A stretch of 64,000 nucleotides of DNA from Candidatus Hydrogenedentota bacterium (GTDB taxonomy: Bacteria; Hydrogenedentota; Hydrogenedentia; Hydrogenedentales; SLHB01): contig JACRLJ010000015.1 of assembly GCA_016215105.1 (NCBI GenBank), positions 1,438 to 65,437 on the forward strand, in the 5' to 3' direction. The notes below the pieces were generated by a model, which was not told the origin of the DNA, ran no database searches, and saw only the letters and a list, made by a program, of their open reading frames with translations. Of the stretch, positions 6,449 to 63,739 are shown one piece after another. How positions within the stretch are numbered: position 1 is the stretch's first letter; the number at the start of each line of letters is the position of its first letter. The position numbers and the translations under genes are program-made.

Positions 6449-6530
6449 GGGCCAACGATATTCAATTCCCGCGCAAGATGTCGCGCGACGCCAAGTCTCA
6501 GTTCAGGCACGTTCGCGGTCAACTGCTTGA

Positions 6531-6656
6531 GGAGTTCGGCCGGAAAGTCGGTTAATTGACGCGGCGCGGCCAGAAAGCATCTGTAAGTTGTTTAACACCG
6601 GCGCTCTCTCTTGCCGGGTCTTGGTAAAAGGAGGCTTTCTGGCCGCGCCTCTAGAC
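6531..6656. repeat. Dispersed intergenic repeat family A, long form (copy A1).
   Basis: About 80% identical to 17653..17778. Shares ...GCGGCGCGGCCAGAAAGCAYYTGTAAGT...CTGGCCGCGCCTCTARA. It has an internal inverted repeat GGCCAGAAAGC/GCTTTCTGGCC. Confidence 0.7.
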
Positions 6657-6863: not shown

Positions 6864-7016
6864 CTACGTTCGGGCATACAGGAAGATCTCGCGGACCGCG
6901 TCATGGACTTGGTCGTCTGTCCAGCCGGGATGTTGCTTGCGCAACCAGGCGGTCTTAATGGCCCACGCGGTCTCATAGAGATCTTGCGAGGTCTTGAGTC
7001 TTTGTGCGGGAGTCAT
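6864..7016 (-). CDS. Possible small protein of about 50 aa, hypothetical.
   Basis: The C-terminal half of ORF 6864..7154 (MTPAQRLKTSQDLYETAWAIKTAWLRKQHPGWTDDQVHDAVREIFLYART) has high GC3 and a non-degenerate composition. There is no homology call and the start is uncertain. Confidence 0.3.
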   Translation of the reverse strand: MTPAQRLKTSQDLYETAWAIKTAWLRKQHPGWTDDQVHDAVREIFLYART

Positions 7017-7215
7017 GGCCTTGATAGTCCGGAGGTATTCCTCGGTCCATCCGTAGGTGTCTTCTGATTCCACGATTCTTCTCGCACCCTGTCCGGTTGA
7101 CGCTTTGGTTTGAGTACTTCCCTGTGGGTCGCATTTAGTATAGTGAGTCTCCACGGACTTTCAAAATGGCGGAAGTTCACGCAGCTGGTAATGCTCATGG
7201 TAGAAGGAGCTTGAG

Positions 7216-9687: not shown

Positions 9688-9705
9688 GCGGGTGCGACGA
9701 ATCTA

Positions 9706-9744
9706 GGAATCCGGCCGGAAAGTCGGCTCATTGACGCGGCGCGG
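9706..9744. repeat. Repeat family A, short form (copy A2), directly abutting a family B half-copy.
   Basis: GGAATCCGGCCGGAAAGTCGGCTCATTGACGCGGCGCGG. Lies in the convergent intergenic region between 9687 and 9875. Confidence 0.7.
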
Positions 9745-9752
9745 GGCTGTCG

Positions 9753-9794
9753 TACGTTGGCAGGAGATTCTTCGCTGCCGCTCAGAATGACACG
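9753..9794. repeat. Repeat family B, right-arm half copy (B1).
   Basis: TACGTTGGCAGGAGATTCTTCGCTGCCGCTCAGAATGACACG matches the right arm of the full copies at 30361..30475 and 55658..55773. Confidence 0.75.
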
Positions 9795-9874
9795 TTGCGC
9801 AGGTTTTCCAGAAAGGCGGAGAACGGCCTTGGCTGATAGGTCCTCAACAGCAGAACTGGTGGATTGGTTCGGTC

Positions 9875-15604: not shown

Positions 15605-15923
15605 CACTACAACGCAAATCTCTCTAGGAGCCGTTGCGCAATCGGCTCATCTGGACATCTCCCACGAGAGCGCAGCGCTATTCAGGACGAAACATCACCG
15701 CGGAGCACGGGGGTATGCTGCGCCCCGCTGGGGCTGTCCGATGGGTTGCGCTTTGGTCCGGGGGTTCCCTGCCGGTCACCCCCGGCTACTTCCCTGTCGT
15801 CCCTTCGGGACTTGGCTCTTGAGATCTCGTGTCCTATTCAGCATTTGAGAAATCGCCGCCACCCCGGGGGGACTGAATTCGAAATCCTGGACATCGGCCA
15901 ATCAACCTAGCGTTGTAGTATTA

Positions 15924-15963
15924 GGAATCCGGCCAAAGAGTCAGCTTTATGACGCGGCGCGGC
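15924..15963. repeat. Repeat family A, short form (A3).
   Basis: GGAATCCGGCCAAAGAGTCAGCTTTATGACGCGGCGCGG in a convergent intergenic region. Confidence 0.65.
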
Positions 15964-16052
15964 GGTGTTCTGGCGAGGGAGACGTCACACGCGCCGTGGC
16001 TGACGCGCCGCGACACAGTATCTGCCGTTGGAGAGTCTCGAGCGCGCTCGAC

Positions 16053-17301: not shown

Positions 17302-17652
17302 GCCAATCCTCCGCTCTCAATGCCGTACAGGAAGGATTTCGAGGAAGGCCGGGCGCGGCTGGCGCGCCTCCAACTTCCCAAACCGCCGCTTCCTGCAATA
17401 CAACACACACGCGCTGACTTCACGACGCCACCGGCGTAGCCACAGAGCAACACTTTTCACACTCAAAGCCGTACGCGCCTGCCCCAGGTACCTATCTGGA
17501 CTGCGGAAGCGTCAGTCCCCAGACTAGCAACAGCGGAATTATGCCACAGCGCTGCAGTATTCCGCAAGTAATTTTTGAGCGTCGACTCCAACAATACGGA
17601 CAAATATCTCAGATTGCGTAAAATCACGCAGTCGCGTCCAGTTCAATGCCTA

Positions 17653-17778
17653 GGAATCCGGCCAGAAAGTTAGCATTATTGCGCGGCGCGGCCAGAAAGC
17701 ACTTGTAAGTCGTTCAATGCCATCGCTGGCTCGTAGGGACTCTTGCTATTCGGAAGCTTCCTGGCCGCGCCTCTAAAG
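17653..17778. repeat. Repeat family A, long form (A4).
   Basis: GGAATCCGGCCAGAAAGTTAGC...GCGCGGCGCGGCCAGAAAGCACTTGTAAGT...CTGGCCGCGCCTCTAAAG. It pairs with copy 6531..6656 and sits in a divergent intergenic region. Confidence 0.7.
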
Positions 17779-27964: not shown

Positions 27965-28051
27965 GCTGGGTTCCGGGACGTGATGAGACGGGATGGGAAC
28001 TAATGGGATGGGAATCAATGCGAAATCCGTCTCCGTGATTGGTAAGGGAAA

Positions 28052-28181
28052 GACGCCGAATTTCGCACAACACTGACACGCGAATTTCAGCATCAAGAAC
28101 AAGCGGGCGTCGAGCTTGTGTCGAGAGAGGGACAGACACCGAATTTCGCACAACACCGACGTGCGAATTTCGGTGTCAGTC
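28052..28181. repeat. Two related imperfect palindromes/direct repeats downstream of amtB.
   Basis: 28052..28094 reads GACGCCGAATTTCGCACAACACTGACACGCGAATTTCAGC. 28131..28181 reads GACAGACACCGAATTTCGCACAACACCGACGTGCGAATTTCGGTGTCAGTC, with a near-perfect 17-bp stem. Seen directly in the sequence. Confidence 0.6.
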
Positions 28182-28203
28182 CCAAGCGCGTAATGTAGGT
28201 TCG

Positions 28204-30073: not shown

Positions 30074-30360
30074 AATTCAGGAATTCCCTTTCACGTCCCT
30101 TGCGCGCTGGACGGGCGCGTCGAGCACAAAGCATAGCACACCGTTTCGCTGTGGTTCTTTTGTCATCTTGCAGTTGCGAAATGGCGCCAAGTCTGAGAAC
30201 CGCGCGGTTTCCCGGACTCGACCCCATCCCCGGACACTATGATACCCAAAGGCCCGCTTTGGTTTCCGGCGCGGAATTCGCAGACTCCAGAGGAGGCGAC
30301 GGTCTGCGAAAGGCACCCGAAATGAGCAAGGTTTTGCCAATCCGATACTGGACTACTAAC

Positions 30361-30475
30361 GTGTCATTCTGAGCGGTAGCGAAGAACCTAACCCGTGCAA
30401 GTTGAGCGCCCTGCTCCTTACGCACGGCTGTTGCACGTTGGCAGGAGATTCTTCGCTACCGCTCAGAATGACACG
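30361..30475. repeat. Repeat family B, full copy (B2) with about 27-bp terminal inverted repeats.
   Basis: GTGTCATTCTGAGCGGTAGCGAAGAA...TTCTTCGCTACCGCTCAGAATGACACG. About 85% identical overall to 55658..55773. Confidence 0.85.
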
Positions 30476-30533
30476 TTGTTGGGATCTATTCGGGAGGGTA
30501 CGGGGCAGGATTCCGCGGGCTTTTTGTACCCCC

Positions 30534-33426: not shown

Positions 33427-33545
33427 CGCGGGCCGAATCAGCAGCCGCTGGCAGAGCTGGCGGTATGAGGAATGTCCCTACGGCGGCCTGGCCGCGACGA
33501 TATAGTCTATGGTGTGGATGCTCGGATCGGATGCACGACTGCTAA

Positions 33546-33576
33546 CGTGCCATTCTGAACGGTAGTGAAGAATCTA
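33546..33576. repeat. Repeat family B, degenerate left arm (B3).
   Basis: GTGCCATTCTGAACGGTAGTGAAGAATCTAT versus GTGTCATTCTGAGCGGTAGCGAAGAATCTAA. Confidence 0.5.
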
Positions 33577-33650
33577 TCACCGGCAGAGCCGGAAGATGAC
33601 CTATGACTTAGCACGCGTGGTCACAACCAAGAGCGCCAGTGCATCGACGA

Positions 33651-36600
33651 CTACGGCGTAATTGAGCACTGCGGCAGGTCTTTCTTGAGGATTTTCAGGG
33701 CGCCTGCGGAGACCTTGGTCTGCGATAGGTTCAGCTTGCGCAATTGCGTGAATCCGGACAGGACCGTCGTAGCCTCGTCTGTCACGGGAGTTCCCGACAG
33801 GTTCAAATCGATCAGGTTGGGCAGCTCCTTCAGGGATTCCAGTCCCTTGCCGGTCACCTTTACGTTCAGCAACGTGAGGCGCTCGAGCTGGGTCAGCGCG
33901 GCCAACTCGGCCAAGCCCTCGTCCGTCACTTTGCTCGAGGCGATCTGCAGTTCGCGCAGGCCGGTGAGCTTCGTCAGGTTCCGCAGCTCCGCGTCGGTCG
34001 CAACTCTTCCCATCAGGATGATCGTGTTGAAGCTGTTCTTGTCCAGTGAACTGAGCGCGGTCAAATCCTGCGCGGCCTCGCTGTCGGTTTGGAGCTTGAG
34101 TTCGGCGCCTGGAGGCACTCCGACCTTACCCTGAGCGGGCCCGAGTTTGGCCCACTGCTGCGGGTCTACCGAACCCAAATTGCGGCTGAACAAGGTTCCG
34201 ACGGCTCCGCCGTCACCGAAATTCAGCAATCGCGGCGGCACGGCCAGTCCCGTGTCGCTGGTTCGCGACGAAATAACGGTCTTGACGGAGTCAGTCAACG
34301 TGCCGAACGAGAGGATCCCTTTGGATTCGAGGAACCACAACATGCCAACAAGAACTACCACTGCCGCCACCGCGAACAGCATCAACCGGGAGCGCTCGGG
34401 CGAATCCTGCGAGCCCTTCAAGCGGGTCCCAATTTTGGCCATCGCCGCGTCACGATCTTTCAGCGACTTCCGCAGCTTCTCGACTTCCGCGTGCGCCTTG
34501 GCCAGATCGCCGGACTTATCCCCTTGCGCTTTCCGCAGCGCATCGAGCTCCGCAGCCAGCTTTTGCTCGGATTCGGACGCGTCGCCCGTCTTCGCGCGCA
34601 ACGAGGCCAATTCCTCTTGGAGCGCCGAGACTTCCTCTTCACTTTGCGAGCTGTGCATGCTCGCCGCGACCATTGCTTCGTCGCGATCCGCCAGGGCCTT
34701 CTTGAGCGCCTCGACCTCGGCCTGCGCTTCGGACAGCGCGCCAGCCTTGTTGGATTGTTCGGCGCGCAACGCCGCAAGTTCCTCCGCCAGCTTCTGCTCG
34801 GACTCAGAGGCCTGACCTGTCTTCGCGCGAAGGCCTTCGAGTTCCTGGCGCAGCGCGTTCATGGCGTTTTCGCTGTCCGCGTTCCGCTGCGCCGCGGCGG
34901 ACATGGCTTCGTCGCGTTCCGTGAGCGATTTCTTCAGCGCCTCGACCTCCGCGCGGGCTTCGTCGAGGGCGCCGGATTTGTTGGTCTGCTCTTTACGCAG
35001 CGCTTCGAGTTCGGTTTCGAGCTGCCGCTCGGATTGAGACGCCTGGCCAGCCTTGGCCTGGATGGCCTCCAACTCTTTCTTGAGCGCCTCGACGGCCTTT
35101 TCGCTTTCGGAACTGCGTTGCGCGGCGGCGGACATGGCTTCGTCCCGCTCGCCGAGAGAGCGTTTGAGCGCCTCGACTTCCGCGCGGGCTTCGTCGAGCG
35201 CGCCGGACTTGTCGCTCTGTTCTTTGCGCAGCGCTTCGAGCTCGGAGACCAACTGCTGTTCCGATGTGGACGCCTGACTGGCTTGCCCGCGCAACGATTC
35301 GAGTTCTTGTTGCAGCGCGCTGACGGCCTTTTCACTTTCGGAACTGCGCTGGGTAGCGGCGGCCATGGCCTCGTCGCGTTCGCCCAAAGAATGTTTGAGC
35401 GCTTCGACTTCCGCCCGCGCCTCGGCCAGCGCGTTAGTCTTGTTGGTTTGTTCCGCGCGCAACGCCTCCAATTCACGCGCCAGTTCCTGTTCGGAAGTGG
35501 CCGCGCGCGCCGCGTTCGAGCGCAGAGCATCCAATTCTTGATTCAGCTTGGCCACCGCCGCCGCGCTCTCGGTGCTATTCTTGGTGGCCGTCGCCATGGC
35601 TTCGTCCCGCTCGCTTAGCGTACGCTTCAATGTGTCGAGTTCGGACTGCGCGCCGGTCAACTCGCCGGTCTTCGCCGCTTCGTTGGCTCGAATGGCGTCC
35701 AATTCGCGGGCCAATTGCTGTTCGGAAACCGAGGCCTGTTCCGCTTGCGCACGGATGGCGTCCAGTTCGCGTTTGAGCGCCGTAACGGCCTCGCCACTCT
35801 GCGAGCTGGCCGCGGCAACGGCCTTCTCGCGCTCGGCGAGGGTCTTCCGCAACGCGTCCAACTCGACCCGCGCGCCGGTTAGCGCCTCGGACTTATTGCT
35901 CTCCTTGGACCGCAACTCCTGCAGTTCCGCGGCCAGCGCTTTTTCGGATTTCGCGGCTTCGGCCGCTTTCACGCGCAGACCACCCAATTCGCGCTCCAGC
36001 GCGGCGACCGCTTTTTCGCGTTCGGCGTTGCGCTTGGCGGCTTCGGCGATGGCCACCTCGCGGTCGGACAAGGTGCGCTTCAACGCGTCCAACTCGGAGC
36101 GGGCGCCGGCCAGGGCCTCGGTCTTGCTGCCTTCCTTTTCCCGAAGCTCGCTTAACTGCGCGGCCAGGGCCTTCTCGGACGACGACGCGCGGTCGGCCTT
36201 GGTTCGCAGGGCCTCCAGCTCGGCTTGCAGCGCGGTAACCGCTTTCTCACGCTCGGCGTTTCGTTGCGCGGCCTCCGCGATGGCTTTCTCGCGCTCGGAA
36301 AGGGTTTGCTTCAACGATTCGAGTTCGGTTCGGGCGCCAGCCAGCGCTTCGGTCTTACTGTTCTCCTTGGCGCGCAACTCATTGAGCTGGGTGGTTAGGG
36401 CCTGTTCAGAGGAGGACGCGAGTTCGGCCTTTGCGCCGAGGGCGGCGACTTCCTGCTGCAAGGCGGTGACAGCCTTTTCGCGCTCGGCGCTGTGTTTGGC
36501 GGCTTCCGCGATGGCGGCCTCGCGCGACGACAGTGTCTTCTTGAGGAGTTCGAGCTCTGTTCGAGCGCCCGCCAACGCCTCGGTCTTGTTGCCTTCCTTT

Positions 36601-37772
36601 TCGCGGAGCTGCTGAAGCTCGGCCGTGAGGGCTTTTTCAGAGGTCGCAGCGCGATCCGCCTTGGCGCGGATGGATTGAAGCTCGTTTTGAAGAGAGGCGA
36701 CCTCTTTTTCGCGTTCGGCGTTGCGCCGGGCCGCCTCGGCGATGGCCCCTTCACGGTCAGCCAGCGTGTGCTTGAGCGATTCCAACTCGGTTCGGGCGCC
36801 GGCCAAGGCTTCGGTCTTCGTGCTTTCCTTGGCGCGTATTTCCTTCAACTCCGCCTCGAGAGCTTGCTCAGACGACGCGGCGCGCTCGGCCTGTCCACGG
36901 ATGGATTCGAGTTCCTTTTGCAGCGCGGCAACGGCTTTCTCACGTTCCGCGTTTTGGCGCGCGGCTTCGGCAATGGCCATTTCGCGATCCACTAAGGTCT
37001 GCTTCAACGACTCGAGTTCGGAGCGCGCCCCCGACAACGCTTGGACTTGTTGGCTTTCCTTGGCGCGCAGGTCATTCAACTCGGCCGCCAGCGCCTGCTC
37101 GGATGATGACGCCTGTTCGGCGTTCTGGCGGACCTGTTCGAGTTCCTCGCGGAGAACCGCAAACGCTTTTTCCTTTTCAGCGGTCTGCTTGGCGGCCTCT
37201 TCGATAGCCTTCTCGCGCTCGGATAGTTCCTTTCGCAGCAGCTCCAATTCGGACTGCGCGCCTGATAGTGCTTGAAGCTGCTGGTCCTCTTTGGCCCGCA
37301 GTTCTTCGAGTTCACCGGAGAGGTCCTGCTCAGCGCCGGTCTTTTGCTGGGCTTTCGCGCGGAGCTCCTCGAGTTCCTTCTGGAGTGTTTGTACGGTGCG
37401 CCGCAACCCCGACCGGTCGATCTCGTCGGATTGCTTGAGTTTGAGCGAGGCCTTCAAGGCTTTCGCCTCGAGTTCCTGGGCGCCCAGCCAGGACTGGATT
37501 TCCTTGCCCTGCTCCGGGCTCATCCAGCCGCTCAGCGCGGTGGAATCCTTCCGAACCTGGCCGATCCGGTTCACGAGGGCGTCGCAGGCGGCTCCGGCGT
37601 CGTCCAGCAGGTCCAATGCCGCCAAACTCTGCGCCCGCATGTAGACAATACGGACGCTGTTCGGCAGCGCCTGATCCAATTCCTCCAACACAGCGAGCAC
37701 GTCCAGGTACTTTTTCCCCTGGAACAATCCCGCGATTTGCTCGTACTTTCGCTCGGTCTCTTCTGGGCTCAT
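33651..37772 (-). CDS. Giant (1373 aa) single-pass membrane protein. N-terminal TPR-like segment, about 13 tandem 77-aa coiled-coil repeats, a TM helix, and C-terminal leucine-rich repeats.
   Basis: Repeating unit ALAGARTELESLKQTLSEREKAIAEAAQRNAEREKAVTALQAELEALRTKADRASSSEKALAAQLSELREKEGSKTE. TM helix LMLFAVAAVVVLVGMLWFL. C-terminal LRRs (LTKLTGLRELQIASSKVTD..LTQLERLTLLNVKVT..LPNLIDLNLSGTPVTD..LRKLNLSQTKV). Shadow ORFs on both strands were rejected. Confidence 0.85.
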   Translation of the reverse strand: MSPEETERKYEQIAGLFQGKKYLDVLAVLEELDQALPNSVRIVYMRAQSLAALDLLDDAGAACDALVNRIGQVRKDSTALSGWMSPEQGKEIQSWLGAQELEAKALKASLKLKQSDEIDRSGLRRTVQTLQKELEELRAKAQQKTGAEQDLSGELEELRAKEDQQLQALSGAQSELELLRKELSEREKAIEEAAKQTAEKEKAFAVLREELEQVRQNAEQASSSEQALAAELNDLRAKESQQVQALSGARSELESLKQTLVDREMAIAEAARQNAEREKAVAALQKELESIRGQAERAASSEQALEAELKEIRAKESTKTEALAGARTELESLKHTLADREGAIAEAARRNAEREKEVASLQNELQSIRAKADRAATSEKALTAELQQLREKEGNKTEALAGARTELELLKKTLSSREAAIAEAAKHSAEREKAVTALQQEVAALGAKAELASSSEQALTTQLNELRAKENSKTEALAGARTELESLKQTLSEREKAIAEAAQRNAEREKAVTALQAELEALRTKADRASSSEKALAAQLSELREKEGSKTEALAGARSELDALKRTLSDREVAIAEAAKRNAEREKAVAALERELGGLRVKAAEAAKSEKALAAELQELRSKESNKSEALTGARVELDALRKTLAEREKAVAAASSQSGEAVTALKRELDAIRAQAEQASVSEQQLARELDAIRANEAAKTGELTGAQSELDTLKRTLSERDEAMATATKNSTESAAAVAKLNQELDALRSNAARAATSEQELARELEALRAEQTNKTNALAEARAEVEALKHSLGERDEAMAAATQRSSESEKAVSALQQELESLRGQASQASTSEQQLVSELEALRKEQSDKSGALDEARAEVEALKRSLGERDEAMSAAAQRSSESEKAVEALKKELEAIQAKAGQASQSERQLETELEALRKEQTNKSGALDEARAEVEALKKSLTERDEAMSAAAQRNADSENAMNALRQELEGLRAKTGQASESEQKLAEELAALRAEQSNKAGALSEAQAEVEALKKALADRDEAMVAASMHSSQSEEEVSALQEELASLRAKTGDASESEQKLAAELDALRKAQGDKSGDLAKAHAEVEKLRKSLKDRDAAMAKIGTRLKGSQDSPERSRLMLFAVAAVVVLVGMLWFLESKGILSFGTLTDSVKTVISSRTSDTGLAVPPRLLNFGDGGAVGTLFSRNLGSVDPQQWAKLGPAQGKVGVPPGAELKLQTDSEAAQDLTALSSLDKNSFNTIILMGRVATDAELRNLTKLTGLRELQIASSKVTDEGLAELAALTQLERLTLLNVKVTGKGLESLKELPNLIDLNLSGTPVTDEATTVLSGFTQLRKLNLSQTKVSAGALKILKKDLPQCSITP
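34530..37330 (-). repeat. Intragenic tandem repeat, period about 231 bp (77 codons), about 12-13 units, encoding coiled-coil heptads.
   Basis: Periodicity is visible in the protein translation and in recurring DNA strings such as CTTGAGCGCCTCGACCTCCGCGCGGGCTTCGTCGAG. Confidence 0.85.
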
Positions 37773-39541: not shown

Positions 39542-39582
39542 GGAATCCGGCCGAGGAGTCGGCGTTCTGGCCGCGCCTCTAA
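39542..39582. repeat. Repeat family A, collapsed short copy (A5) overlapping the GH20 stop codon.
   Basis: GGAATCCGGCCGAGGAGTCGGCGTTCTGGCCGCGCCTCTAA contains both family A termini. Confidence 0.65.
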
Positions 39583-52194: not shown

Positions 52195-52660
52195 GGCATG
52201 ATCCTCCCTTTTTGAGATTACTGAAAACCCCGTAAAGTGAACTATTAGTTTGTCCATTCACTACCCACTGGCCGTAATGTTACCCCCCCCCCGATTTTGT
52301 CAAGGACTTTTTTCATCGCGAACTTTTTCGTCGCGCAGGTCCAATATGGACCTCGCACTACTGGTGGATAGCTTCAGTACATGACGCGCGTCCCGTGCCA
52401 GGCTGCGGGAAGCGCAGGGAGAGAATTGACGGACACGCTATCAGGGAGTAGTGAGTGGCGGGGATCAGTAGTACGGTGAGTACGGCAGTCGCTATGGAAC
52501 CGAGATGTTGCGCGAATGACACCGGTGGACTTGCCTAACTGGGCTCCTCCCGAGTAGGTTGGATCAATTTCCGTTTGTGCCACGGCCCACGCGGCGGGGC
52601 ATAGTCTCGCGCTCTTAACCCGCGCATACGAAGCGCCGCGCCTATTGTGCGCGGTTGTCA

Positions 52661-52703
52661 CACGTTAGCGGCAGATTCTTCGCTGGCGCTCAGAATGACG
52701 CGT
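52661..52703. repeat. Repeat family B, right-arm half copy (B4).
   Basis: CACGTTAGCGGCAGATTCTTCGCTGGCGCTCAGAATGACGCG. Confidence 0.65.
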
Positions 52704-52794
52704 TGACCGCAGTATCTCCGGTTGGTAAGCGTTGGTTCGTTTGGAGTCCTTTGCTTTCAATCGGTTCCGCCGGCGCTTGCTTATTAGACTCGCA

Positions 52795-53814: not shown

Positions 53815-54065
53815 AATAAGTAGGTGTACACGATTTGTGAGGCGAGTTCAACGGCGGGGAAAAGGGACAAAAGGGACGCAAGAGACTCAAGGGACCTATC
53901 AGATGGATCGGGCGGATCCGGCAGGCCGGACGCATGGCTTGGCGTACGGGTTTGGGAAAGCAAGAACTGGTTGACCGGTCCGGCGGTCGCAAGGTAGAAT
54001 GGGGTACCATCATTTTCGCGGCGCGGGCTGCGCAATCACGGCAAGTACAAAGGAGCAGACTACTT

Positions 54066-55505
54066 ATGACAACAGTTCTGGAGCCGGGCTTGGAATACAA
54101 GGTCGCGGACCTCAGTTTGGCCGAGTGGGGACGGAAAGAACTCGACATGGCCGAGAAGGAGATGCCGGGGTTGATGGCGATTCGCGAGCGGTACGCGGCG
54201 AAGCAGCCCTTGAAGGGAACGCGCATCTCCGGTTCGTTGCACATGACGATTCAGACCGCGGTGCTCATTGAAACGCTCAAGGCGTTGGGCGCGGACGTGC
54301 GCTGGGCAAGCTGCAATATCTACTCGACGCAGGATCACGCCGCGGCGGCAATCGCCGAGGCAGGGATTCCGGTATTCGCCTGGAAGGGCGAGACACTCGA
54401 GGAGTACTGGTGGTGTACGAACCAGGCGCTGCTGTTTCCGGACGGAAGCGGGCCGACCCTGATCGTCGATGACGGCGGGGACGCGACGCTGTTCATCCAC
54501 CGTGGCTACGAGTTCGAAGAAACGTACAACAAGACCGGCAAGTTGCCGCCGGTGTGCACGGACAACGCCGAGATTACGATCATCGACAGGCTGCTGCACG
54601 AAATACACGCGGACACGCCCAACCGCTGGCACGAAGTGGTCAAGCACTGGATTGGTGTTTCGGAAGAGACCACGACGGGCGTACACCGGCTGTATCAGAT
54701 GATGCAGAACGGTAAGCTGCTGACGCGCGCGATCAACGTGAACGATTCGGTGACGAAGTCGAAATTCGACAACCTGTACGGCTGCCGGGAATCCCTTGCC
54801 GACGGCATCAAGCGCGCGACCGACGTGATGATCGCGGGCAAGGTGGTGGTGATTGCCGGTTACGGCGACGTGGGCAAGGGTTGCGCGGACGCGATGAAGG
54901 GGTTGGGCGCGCGCGTGATTATTACCGAGATTGACCCGATTTGCGCGCTGCAAGCGGCGATGGAAGGCTATCAGGTTACAACGATGGCCGAGGCCGCGCC
55001 GCACGGCGACATCTTCGTAACCACGACGGGCTGCTGCGACGTGATTCGCAGTGAGCACATGAAGATCATGAAGGACGAAGCGATCCTCTGCAACATCGGC
55101 CATTTCGACTCCGAAATCGATGTGGCGTGGCTGGAATCCCAGAAGAACATCAAGCAACTGAACATCAAACCCCAGGTGGACAAGTTCATTTTCCCTGACG
55201 GGCGATGCCTCATCCTGCTGGCCCGCGGCCGCTTGGTAAACCTCGGCTGCGCGACGGGACATCCGTCGTTCGTGATGTCGAATTCGTTTGCGAATCAGAC
55301 GCTGGCGCAAATCTCGCTTAAGACCGAAACGGATAAGTACGAAGTGGGCAAGGTCTACACCCTGCCGAAGAAGCTGGACGAGGAAGTGGCTCGGTTGCAT
55401 CTCGAGAAGCTCGGTGTGAGACTCGAAACGCTATCGAAGAAGCAATCCGATTACCTTGGCGTTCCGGCAGAGGGTCCGTACAAACCGGAACACTACCGCT
55501 ACTAG
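54066..55505 (+). CDS. ahcY: Adenosylhomocysteinase.
   Basis: Trimmed to MTTVLEPG after AAAGGAG. SAHH signatures: [28 protein letters not shown] and [13 protein letters not shown]-binding. Confidence 0.93.
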
Positions 55506-55657
55506 GCTTCGCTGAGACAAAGATCGTATTATCATCGCCGTTCCTGGACCGGTTTCAGGAACGGCGATTTTGGTCAGCAAGAACCGGCAGAGCCGGATTT
55601 TTGGGGAAGGCCCCTAAGTGGGGCTTACGTTCTCTAATGGGATGCGCTACTGCCAAC

Positions 55658-55773
55658 GTGTCATTCTGAGCGGTTGCGAAGAATCTAACCCGTACACGCT
55701 GAGCGCTCTGCTTATAGCACGCAGACTATTGCACGGTGGCAGGAGATTCTTCGCTACCGCTCAGAATGACACG
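55658..55773. repeat. Repeat family B, full copy (B5).
   Basis: GTGTCATTCTGAGCGGTTGCGAAGAATCT...GGCAGGAGATTCTTCGCTACCGCTCAGAATGACACG. Confidence 0.85.
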
Positions 55774-55874
55774 TTGCGCGGACCATGCGCGAAAGTGCCG
55801 GAAGGGCGAAACCGGTAGATTCGCCATGATTCGGGAATGCGGAGCCCAAACGTCACGGCCATGGAGGGGTTGGT

Positions 55875-63361: not shown

Positions 63362-63739
63362 TTAGATTCTGTACGGAACGCGGATACCATTCCATTCAGA
63401 GTTGAAGTCCTTGGTATTGCGCGAGACAAGCACCGCGTCGTTTGTTTGCGCGGTCGCCCAGATGATAGCGTCGGGCAGGCGTAGATGATGAGCACGGCGC
63501 AATCCTACGGCTGCTTCCGCGACTGTCAAGTCAAGCGAGATGATTTCGAAATGCGTTTCAAGAAAGTCGCGCAATTCGGAGTCGTCACCCTGCGCGCCGA
63601 CCAAGATCTCCATCCACGTAATGCGGCTGATAAATACACGCTCGTAACGGACGTATTCGTCGTCGGCTTGTGACAGACCGTTCAGCGCATCTATGACAAT
63701 GTTCGTGTCAAAAACGGCGATCACGCCCGCAGGTCCCAC
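63362..63739 (-). CDS. vapC: PIN-domain toxin (VapC-like).
   Basis: VFDTNIVIDAL N-terminal acidic motif. 125 aa. Conserved D...E...D...D spacing. Confidence 0.8.
   Translation of the reverse strand: MGPAGVIAVFDTNIVIDALNGLSQADDEYVRYERVFISRITWMEILVGAQGDDSELRDFLETHFEIISLDLTVAEAAVGLRRAHHLRLPDAIIWATAQTNDAVLVSRNTKDFNSEWNGIRVPYRI

Follow-up and report, generated by a model that had tools for sequence, protein, structure and literature searches.

The window analysed here, a 64,000-nt stretch of Candidatus Hydrogenedentota bacterium (assembly GCA_016215105.1, contig JACRLJ010000015.1, positions 1,438 to 65,437), carries a short dispersed repeat, designated Family B in an initial annotation, whose arms are not the terminus of a lineage-specific element but copies of a self-pairing hairpin module conserved across many bacterial phyla. 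Family B, we consider it probable, is the non-autonomous and gene-less part of an inverted-hairpin element family that spans many bacterial phyla. The best reading of the data is a system resembling that of the REPINs and their RAYTs (doublets of repetitive extragenic palindromic sequences, REPs, forming hairpins, and REP-associated tyrosine transposases), built here from mini-hairpins with tandem G.A pairs and with a minimal GIY-YIG nuclease as the associated enzyme. More tentatively, the window repeats may belong, as its form without a gene, to a class of mobile element that has not been described before and is present in many phyla, the complete form of which would be about 350-530 nt long with an Slx1-type GIY-YIG gene between two inverted single-stranded-DNA mini-hairpins; we regard this bolder version as a real but still doubtful possibility.

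The repeats themselves are real. When the whole window was scanned with an arm pattern, GTGTCATTCTGAGCGG[AT][AT]GCGAAGAA with up to three mismatches, seven matches were found, compared to none in any of 100 dinucleotide-preserving shuffles, and these seven arms make up two full elements and three partial copies. The full elements had been placed at 30361-30475 and 55658-55773 with a length of about 115 bp, but are slightly longer, running from 30358 to 30478 and from 55654 to 55776 (121-123 nt); neither holds a real open reading frame (ORF). The near-perfect inverted ends and variable center originally described for them were borne out, with arms of 32-33 nt (CAACGTGTCATTCTGAGCGGTAGCGAAGAATCT, left and right 97% complementary) around cores of 55-57 nt that are 77% identical between the two elements. 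Among the intact copies, arm identity was 94-100% and core identity only 61-77%.

In element 1, the left arm (30358-30390, plus strand) contains a hairpin module at 30362-30388 with one outer-stem mismatch (GAAGAACC) and is followed by the variable core (30391-30445), 65% identical to the core of the copy at 52616, and by a right arm on the minus strand (30446-30478) with a perfect module. In element 2, the left arm (55654-55686, plus strand) bears the mini-hairpin variant GCGGTTGC, the core occupies 55687-55743, and the right arm (55744-55776, minus strand) is 100% identical to that of element 1. All three partial copies had been listed as arms only, which fits the one at 33544-33576, a left arm on the plus strand together with its left flank, but not the copy at 52616-52705 on the minus strand, which lacks a left arm but has a core (52616-52672) as well as a right arm (52673-52705). 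The truncated copy at 9753-9797, also on the minus strand, retains the final 12 nt of the core before its right arm (9765-9797). Five of the window modules are perfect, one has a single mismatch and one an altered anchor, and four of them form the two full outward-facing pairs. Conservation also extends some 20 nt leftward beyond the left arm, on the plus strand, in the three copies beginning at 30358, 55654, and 33544 (extensions at 30339-30357 and 55636-55653, and the start of the third copy at 33525-33576), with no clear counterpart on the right flanks of the copies, so that the local subfamily is asymmetric. Even the apparently degenerate arm at 33547 is informative, since two of its three differences from the consensus, a G to A and a C to T change in GA-ACGGTAGT-GA, are a compensatory pair that leaves the inner stem paired.

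The module is 27 nt long. It opens with T-GTC and a 5-bp stem of free sequence; after a tandem G.A/A.G comes an inner stem with a GNA or GNNA loop as its cap (GCGNAGC or GCGNNAGC), and then a further G.A, the complement of the stem, and a final C. Two modules face outward (TGTC...GACA) around either a short variable core, the form found in the window, or a GIY-YIG gene. Evidence that the module pairs with itself came from several counts. The free position in CAT-N-CTGAG...GAAG-N'-AT, which was not fixed by the search pattern, was complementary in 99 of 102 units (T:A 48, C:G 34, G:C 16, A:T 1, and non-Watson-Crick 3). A pattern specifying structure only (GTC, any 5-nt stem, GA, 3-30 nt, GA, and the stem complement) matched 172 units with 14 different stem sequences in 198 kb of loci that had been picked by protein alone, compared to about one in shuffles. 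For the 77 units with 7-nt inserts, a 2-bp Watson-Crick stem was present in 70 and a GNA loop in 59, and across the units the inner stem varied from 2 to about 10 bp, with longer inserts just extending it. In an alignment of 74 units selected solely by their unpaired anchor bases, all seven pairs covaried with changes on both sides, double-change cells numbered 77 compared to 26 +/- 6 in shuffles (with none of 500 shuffles as high), and the covariation score was 0.41 compared to at most 0.15 when the partners were slid.

Pairing within an arm can be separated from pairing between arms. Of 88 short elements, 59 had a different stem variant in each arm, which means that intra-arm pairing is kept even where inter-arm pairing is not. 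Because the stem halves lie at varying distances from each other and the tandem G.A is conserved, the module looks more like a hairpin in extruded or single-stranded DNA than like a duplex site bound by a protein dimer. Its caps, GCGNAGC and GCGNNAGC, correspond to the motifs known as mini-hairpin DNA, which are extraordinarily stable as DNA and far less so as RNA, and a DNA fragment with two such motifs is poorly bound by single-stranded DNA-binding protein (PMC13037366). The module cap is exactly the same sequence as that of the mini-hairpins at single-strand DNA origins and phage N4 promoters, but here it sits in a larger conserved tandem-G.A hairpin that occurs repeatedly and in inverted form and has a link to a nuclease gene. 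To judge from these cap sequences, there is a hint that it is the DNA form that matters.

A role in the transcript is one alternative, and the initial annotation had already pointed out that the arms could fold into a long hairpin. This was confirmed, as the predicted RNA fold of each full element was one long and very stable hairpin (-75 and -74 kcal/mol, with z-scores of -11 and -10; -47 kcal/mol for each when folded as DNA), and GNRA-like loops and tandem G.A pairs are common in RNA. Nevertheless, we think it improbable that the elements are a structured non-coding RNA, be it an intrinsic terminator, a small RNA, or a hairpin that regulates in cis. The elements have no T-run after them, a terminator scan did not call them, and element 1 lies between the divergent promoters of ddl and gntR, so that the terminator role once proposed for the arms found no support. 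The whole window gave no match to Rfam 15 at the gathering threshold, and at E <= 10 the element gave only two matches, both to eukaryotic families at chance level. The inner loop, as described above, matches motifs far more stable as DNA, and the cores are poorly conserved. Furthermore, the arms are reverse complements, so the G.A form appears at the 5' end of each DNA strand but only once per transcript, the other arm there having C.U/U.C, and this favours a role at the level of DNA.

The copies are not confined to the window, as had been foreseen for a multi-copy repeat. The matches of an exact scan with one arm variant, GTCATTCTGAGCGNNNGCGAAGAA, against one genome per species covered at least 120 genome stretches and a wide variety of phyla, including, among the matches listed, Acidobacteriota, Bacteroidota, Clostridia, Chloroflexota, Patescibacteria, Omnitrophota, Deinococcales, Melainabacteria/Cyanobacteria relatives, Elusimicrobiota, Proteobacteria, and more. 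Most of the stretches listed had a single match per 8 kb, and in many of the listed matches an inverted partner followed 10-90 nt after the arm. With a strict form of the module as the pattern, matches were also obtained in viral contigs, in 105 stretches. One complete genome rich in modules is that of Mucilaginibacter sp. X5P1 (NZ_CP183230.1). Tandem or alternating arrays of modules were seen in some genomes (L109, with a period of 99 nt, L144, L195, L017, and L131), and two related viral contigs, L225 and L212, differed in the number of tandem right-arm modules. In a Fibrobacter sp. (L005, 7190-7460) the modules seemingly lie within a serine-rich coding repeat that reads ...SSSGVILSDSEESSSS..., and some copies may therefore be inside, or have been absorbed into, coding sequence.

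When the ORFs beside the 120 listed motif loci were clustered, the sole family that recurred across phyla was a GIY-YIG protein of about 95 aa. Its gene was found by tblastn in four of these 120 loci, which had been chosen by DNA pattern, and each time within about 100 nt of a module. The protein matched PF01541 (GIY-YIG) with E = 3.6e-16, its nearest solved structures were 1zg2 and 1ywl, both UPF0213, and the catalytic Tyr, Tyr, Arg, and Glu were invariant. It consists of a stand-alone GIY-YIG domain with the features of an Slx1/UPF0213 minimal nuclease, and is accordingly a predicted nuclease on the basis of its sequence. The UPF0213 proteins form the bacterial Slx1-like branch of the superfamily, and the standard phylogenomic survey takes the bacterial Slx1-like proteins to be mostly vertically inherited repair factors (PMC1564403).

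The association held in the reverse direction. For 80 metagenome loci picked by the GIY-YIG protein alone from at least 578 relatives, module density was 23-fold higher within 300 nt of the gene than farther away, and in a motif-free count the 9-mers shared by the largest number of loci in the gene flanks were all derived from the module. A perfect module was present in 54 of the 80 loci, and one with no more than a single stem mismatch lay within 300 nt of the gene in 65, compared to two to five in shuffles. The spacing of outward-facing pairs was bimodal, at 0-60 nt in 79 pairs and at 300-400 nt in 21, and in 16 loci the gene was exactly bracketed by two modules to form units of 351-528 nt. 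In most of these units the forward module preceded the start codon by 10-40 nt (at the most by about 80 nt), and the inverted module usually followed the stop codon at a distance of 0-40 nt (or of as much as about 95 nt if an extra module copy lay in between). The genes flanking the 80 loci were mutually unrelated, and no transposase or other gene family recurred beside the modules in either the 120 listed motif loci or the 80 protein-chosen loci.

These results bear directly on the suggestion that Family B is a MITE (miniature inverted-repeat transposable element) or a REP-like non-autonomous element. The general description stands, in that the copies are short, gene-less, and bounded by inverted repeats in a REP-like layout, but the classical MITE does not. 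A classical MITE would have arisen from an insertion sequence by deletion, and its mobility would depend on a DDE-type transposase recognising the terminal inverted repeats of 27-33 bp; the inverted repeats, small size, lack of coding capacity, and several intergenic copies all agree with such an origin. Bacterial MITEs, like these elements, also have a longer gene-bearing counterpart with the same ends. We nonetheless hold it to be very improbable. The element boundary is TGTC...GACA; of 120 elements, 97 had a T at -1 and 100 an A at +1. No target-site duplication was found in 120 full elements at offsets of 0-5 and lengths of 2-8, the counts not exceeding those for permuted flanks. As had been noted, the window has no transposase: among about 50 ORFs scanned against Pfam there was no match to a transposase, integrase, or GIY-YIG family. 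The initial annotation had also suggested a search for a transposase gene with matching ends elsewhere, but the gene found between such ends was that for the minimal GIY-YIG nuclease and not a parent transposase. The covariation of a hairpin within each terminus and the variable length of its inner stem would be unexplained by a transposase that binds duplex DNA, and the elements share their self-folding ends across many phyla, whereas 97.4% of prokaryotic MITEs were genus-specific in a census (PMC11602168).

The closest likeness is to the REPIN/RAYT system, with which the elements share short imperfect hairpins, a conserved 5' tetranucleotide, inverted pairs around a spacer, intergenic copies that far outnumber the gene, a small nuclease gene flanked by the hairpins, and the lack of a target-site duplication (PMC3337134, PMC3116915, PMC2817692). 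A strict REP/REPIN family mobilised by a RAYT, that is, by an IS200/IS605-like Y1 HUH transposase encoded elsewhere in the genome, would account for this layout (PMC3337134), but seems to us no more credible than the classical MITE is. The module-flanked gene encodes a minimal GIY-YIG protein of the Slx1/UPF0213 type and not a Y1 HUH transposase, and no further gene family recurred beside the modules. In addition, the hairpin is nearly the same across phyla, unlike the species-specific REP hairpins, and has tandem G.A pairs and a GNA or GNNA mini-hairpin. The elements also resemble IS200/IS605 and its gene-less derivatives, the palindrome-associated elements, in having hairpins at or near their ends and no target-site duplication; the conserved left flank of the window copies makes the hairpin subterminal there too. 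The IS200/IS605 hairpins are recognised as single-stranded DNA, as the modules would be under the reading that we propose, but the two IS200/IS605 ends differ and are not inverted copies, and the HUH transposase forms a covalent intermediate that would be impossible for a GIY-YIG nuclease. Classical MITE, RAYT-driven REP, terminator, and known RNA each fail at least one of their defining features that were tested.

Comparison with an independent assembly of the same organism (SRR12113407) revealed one recent structural change. Contig L201 of that assembly is identical to the window over 3,128 nt, with no mismatches, up to the end of the left arm at 33576. Beyond this position L201 has a core and an intact right arm, and is therefore full-length for this copy, whereas the window has unrelated sequence; the point of divergence, at 33577, coincides exactly with the left arm's inner edge. 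The difference may reflect a deletion, a rearrangement between copies, or population heterogeneity. It lends some substance to the earlier idea that the arms are recombination hotspots, since one copy differing between near-identical genomes fits recombination or rearrangement. Three contig ends of the independent assembly fall inside right arms (at window position 30449, where L201 starts in element 1, at 55750, where L312 starts in element 2, and at the other end of L201), as is expected of a multi-copy repeat. The truncated copy at 9753 directly adjoins a copy of another repeat family (9704-9750), and this composite is identical in the window and in the independent-assembly contig L314. Relatives fetched via their AdoHcyase genes had a different downstream synteny and carried no modules, and an all-against-all search of the fetched loci gave only unrelated coding indels and the above difference in tandem module number between two viral contigs.

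For the REPIN/RAYT-like system we propose the following mechanism. The modules would act as single-stranded or extruded DNA hairpins, and would be recognised by the GIY-YIG nuclease, a structure-specific enzyme that some gene-bearing copy at another place in the genome would provide in trans. Cutting by the nuclease would occur at the hairpin boundary, and host repair or replication would then copy or remove the element, so that cutting would drive its spread; such a route would leave no target-site duplication. This would parallel the service of REPINs by a RAYT, or the spread of a homing-endonuclease gene among gene-less copies.

Several points weigh against this proposal. A GIY-YIG nuclease cannot join DNA, so the nuclease alone leaves spread to new sites unexplained. 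Only about 2% of the modules adjoin a GIY-YIG gene, and neither such a gene nor a remnant of one was found in the 64-kb window by tblastn or with a profile of 72 proteins. The nearest-neighbour energy of a single arm is weak (-2.9 kcal/mol), and in the full copies of the window the long arm-to-arm hairpin would dominate. Among the fetched relatives and loci there was no empty site and no clean insertion junction, and mobility is thus something that we infer and did not see. Lastly, the arms are far better conserved than the cores and near-identical across phyla, which could point to a host-selected function instead, and the GIY-YIG gene could be a homing parasite of the hairpins and not their mobiliser.

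These last two points together make up the main rival, in which the hairpins are structural or regulatory elements selected by the host (binding sites, determinants of processing or stability, signals for single-strand priming, or hairpin promoters) and the GIY-YIG gene is a homing-type parasite of them. We judge it unlikely, though clearly less so than the other alternatives. Apart from the conservation of the arms, it is favoured by the occurrence of mini-hairpin motifs in the hairpin promoters of phage N4, in ssiA, a priming signal of a plasmid, and at the origins where single-strand phage DNA is primed, by the lack of a nuclease gene near most modules, and by the location of the gene exactly within arm pairs, where a homing gene would land. 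It fits poorly with copies that occur in unrelated contexts, with inconsistent position and orientation relative to genes, with the existence of truncated and nested copies, and with the lack of a match to any known RNA family. Moreover, one of two near-identical genomes has a truncated version of one copy and is otherwise unchanged, which is not how an essential site behaves. The gene also recalls the free-standing GIY-YIG homing endonuclease genes of the I-TevI or Seg type, which likewise appear selfish, occur in varied contexts, and could spread by cleavage and repair copying. The protein found here differs from these in being only about 95 aa long, the catalytic domain alone without a DNA-binding module, in belonging to the Slx1/UPF0213 branch and not the UvrC/homing-endonuclease branch (PMC1564403), and in having its gene bracketed by conserved hairpins.

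All of the Family B copies in the window sit between long ORFs, in agreement with the intergenic placement first reported, and they occupy divergent, co-directional, and convergent intergenic regions. Upstream of a good promoter match, element 1 separates the divergently transcribed ddl from the gntR-ABC operon. Element 2 follows ahcY (AdoHcyase, 53934-55505) and that gene's own terminator-like hairpin, and the partial copies are at convergent or 3' intergenic sites. The AdoHcyase matches a protein from a Candidatus Hydrogenedentes metagenome-assembled genome with 100% identity; of twelve look-ups by exact protein sequence, six gave no record.

The other-family repeat beside the copy at 9753 belongs to a second dispersed intergenic family (TAGGAATCCGGCC...GACGCGGCGCGGCCAGAAAGC ... 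GCTTTCTGGCCGCGCCTCTA) with inverted segments of its own, found in the window at 6529-6653, 9704-9750, 15922-15968, 17651-17775, and 39542-39581; its position directly against a truncated Family B copy suggests nested insertion or recombination between the families. An identical 15-mer, ACCGGCAGAGCCGGA, with a small CCGGC/GCCGG hairpin, is present at 33579-33593 and 55583-55597 beside two Family B copies, and was dropped as a shared feature of the element, about two such coincidences being expected by chance in 64 kb. Repeats of other kinds are also present, namely ten tandem 231-nt (77-codon) repeats, 60-75% identical, at 34621-37221 inside a minus-strand ORF (33651-37772; 1,373 aa) with coiled-coil-like Pfam matches and leucine-rich repeats at its C-terminus, and two adjacent 61-nt direct repeats (28045-28188; 80% identical, 83 nt start to start) between an ammonium transporter gene and dapF. 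A gene for a PIN-domain protein at the window end (63362-63739) and an Rv0078B-related antitoxin-like ORF (6864-7154) are probably toxin-antitoxin components unconnected with the repeats.

Three further identities were considered for Family B and rejected. A hammerhead-like core, suggested by CUGA...GAA, was dismissed by inspection, as the invariant G8 and A9 are missing. For an integron attC site, the arms do carry AAC...GTT, but the remaining RYYYAAC / GTTRRRY core-site positions do not fit; furthermore, the arms are near-perfect without bulges, and the copies are 3-22 kb apart among housekeeping genes and not in cassette arrays. A CRISPR repeat was ruled out by anatomy and spacing.

A full-text literature search, by sequence strings and by concept and covering openly available papers with sequences given in text, revealed no description of the module or of a hairpin-flanked bacterial GIY-YIG element; its matches were only primer coincidences and papers on eukaryotic or organelle GIY-YIG proteins. 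Nor was the element found to be described in Rfam, Pfam, or NCBIfam, and NCBIfam has no specific model for the protein. Elements of this kind are apparently undescribed, though a prior description is possible.

Should the form of about 350-530 nt be truly autonomous, it would represent the first prokaryotic class of transposable or homing element based on a GIY-YIG nuclease, and it would have generated very large numbers of gene-less copies in many phyla. To our knowledge, no autonomous element of so small a size is known. If the REPIN/RAYT-like reading holds, the REP/RAYT life-style would have been reached a second time and independently, with another nuclease fold, and the elements would provide a concrete biological context for the uncharacterised bacterial UPF0213/Slx1-like proteins. 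With a hairpin of 27 nt and a protein of about 95 aa, binding and cleavage are directly testable with oligonucleotides. The elements would further explain where, very commonly, spurious small ORFs and breaks in the assembly of metagenome-assembled genomes come from. In the tandem-G.A mini-hairpin, a DNA structure familiar chiefly from phage origins and from engineering would have a use that is natural and widespread.

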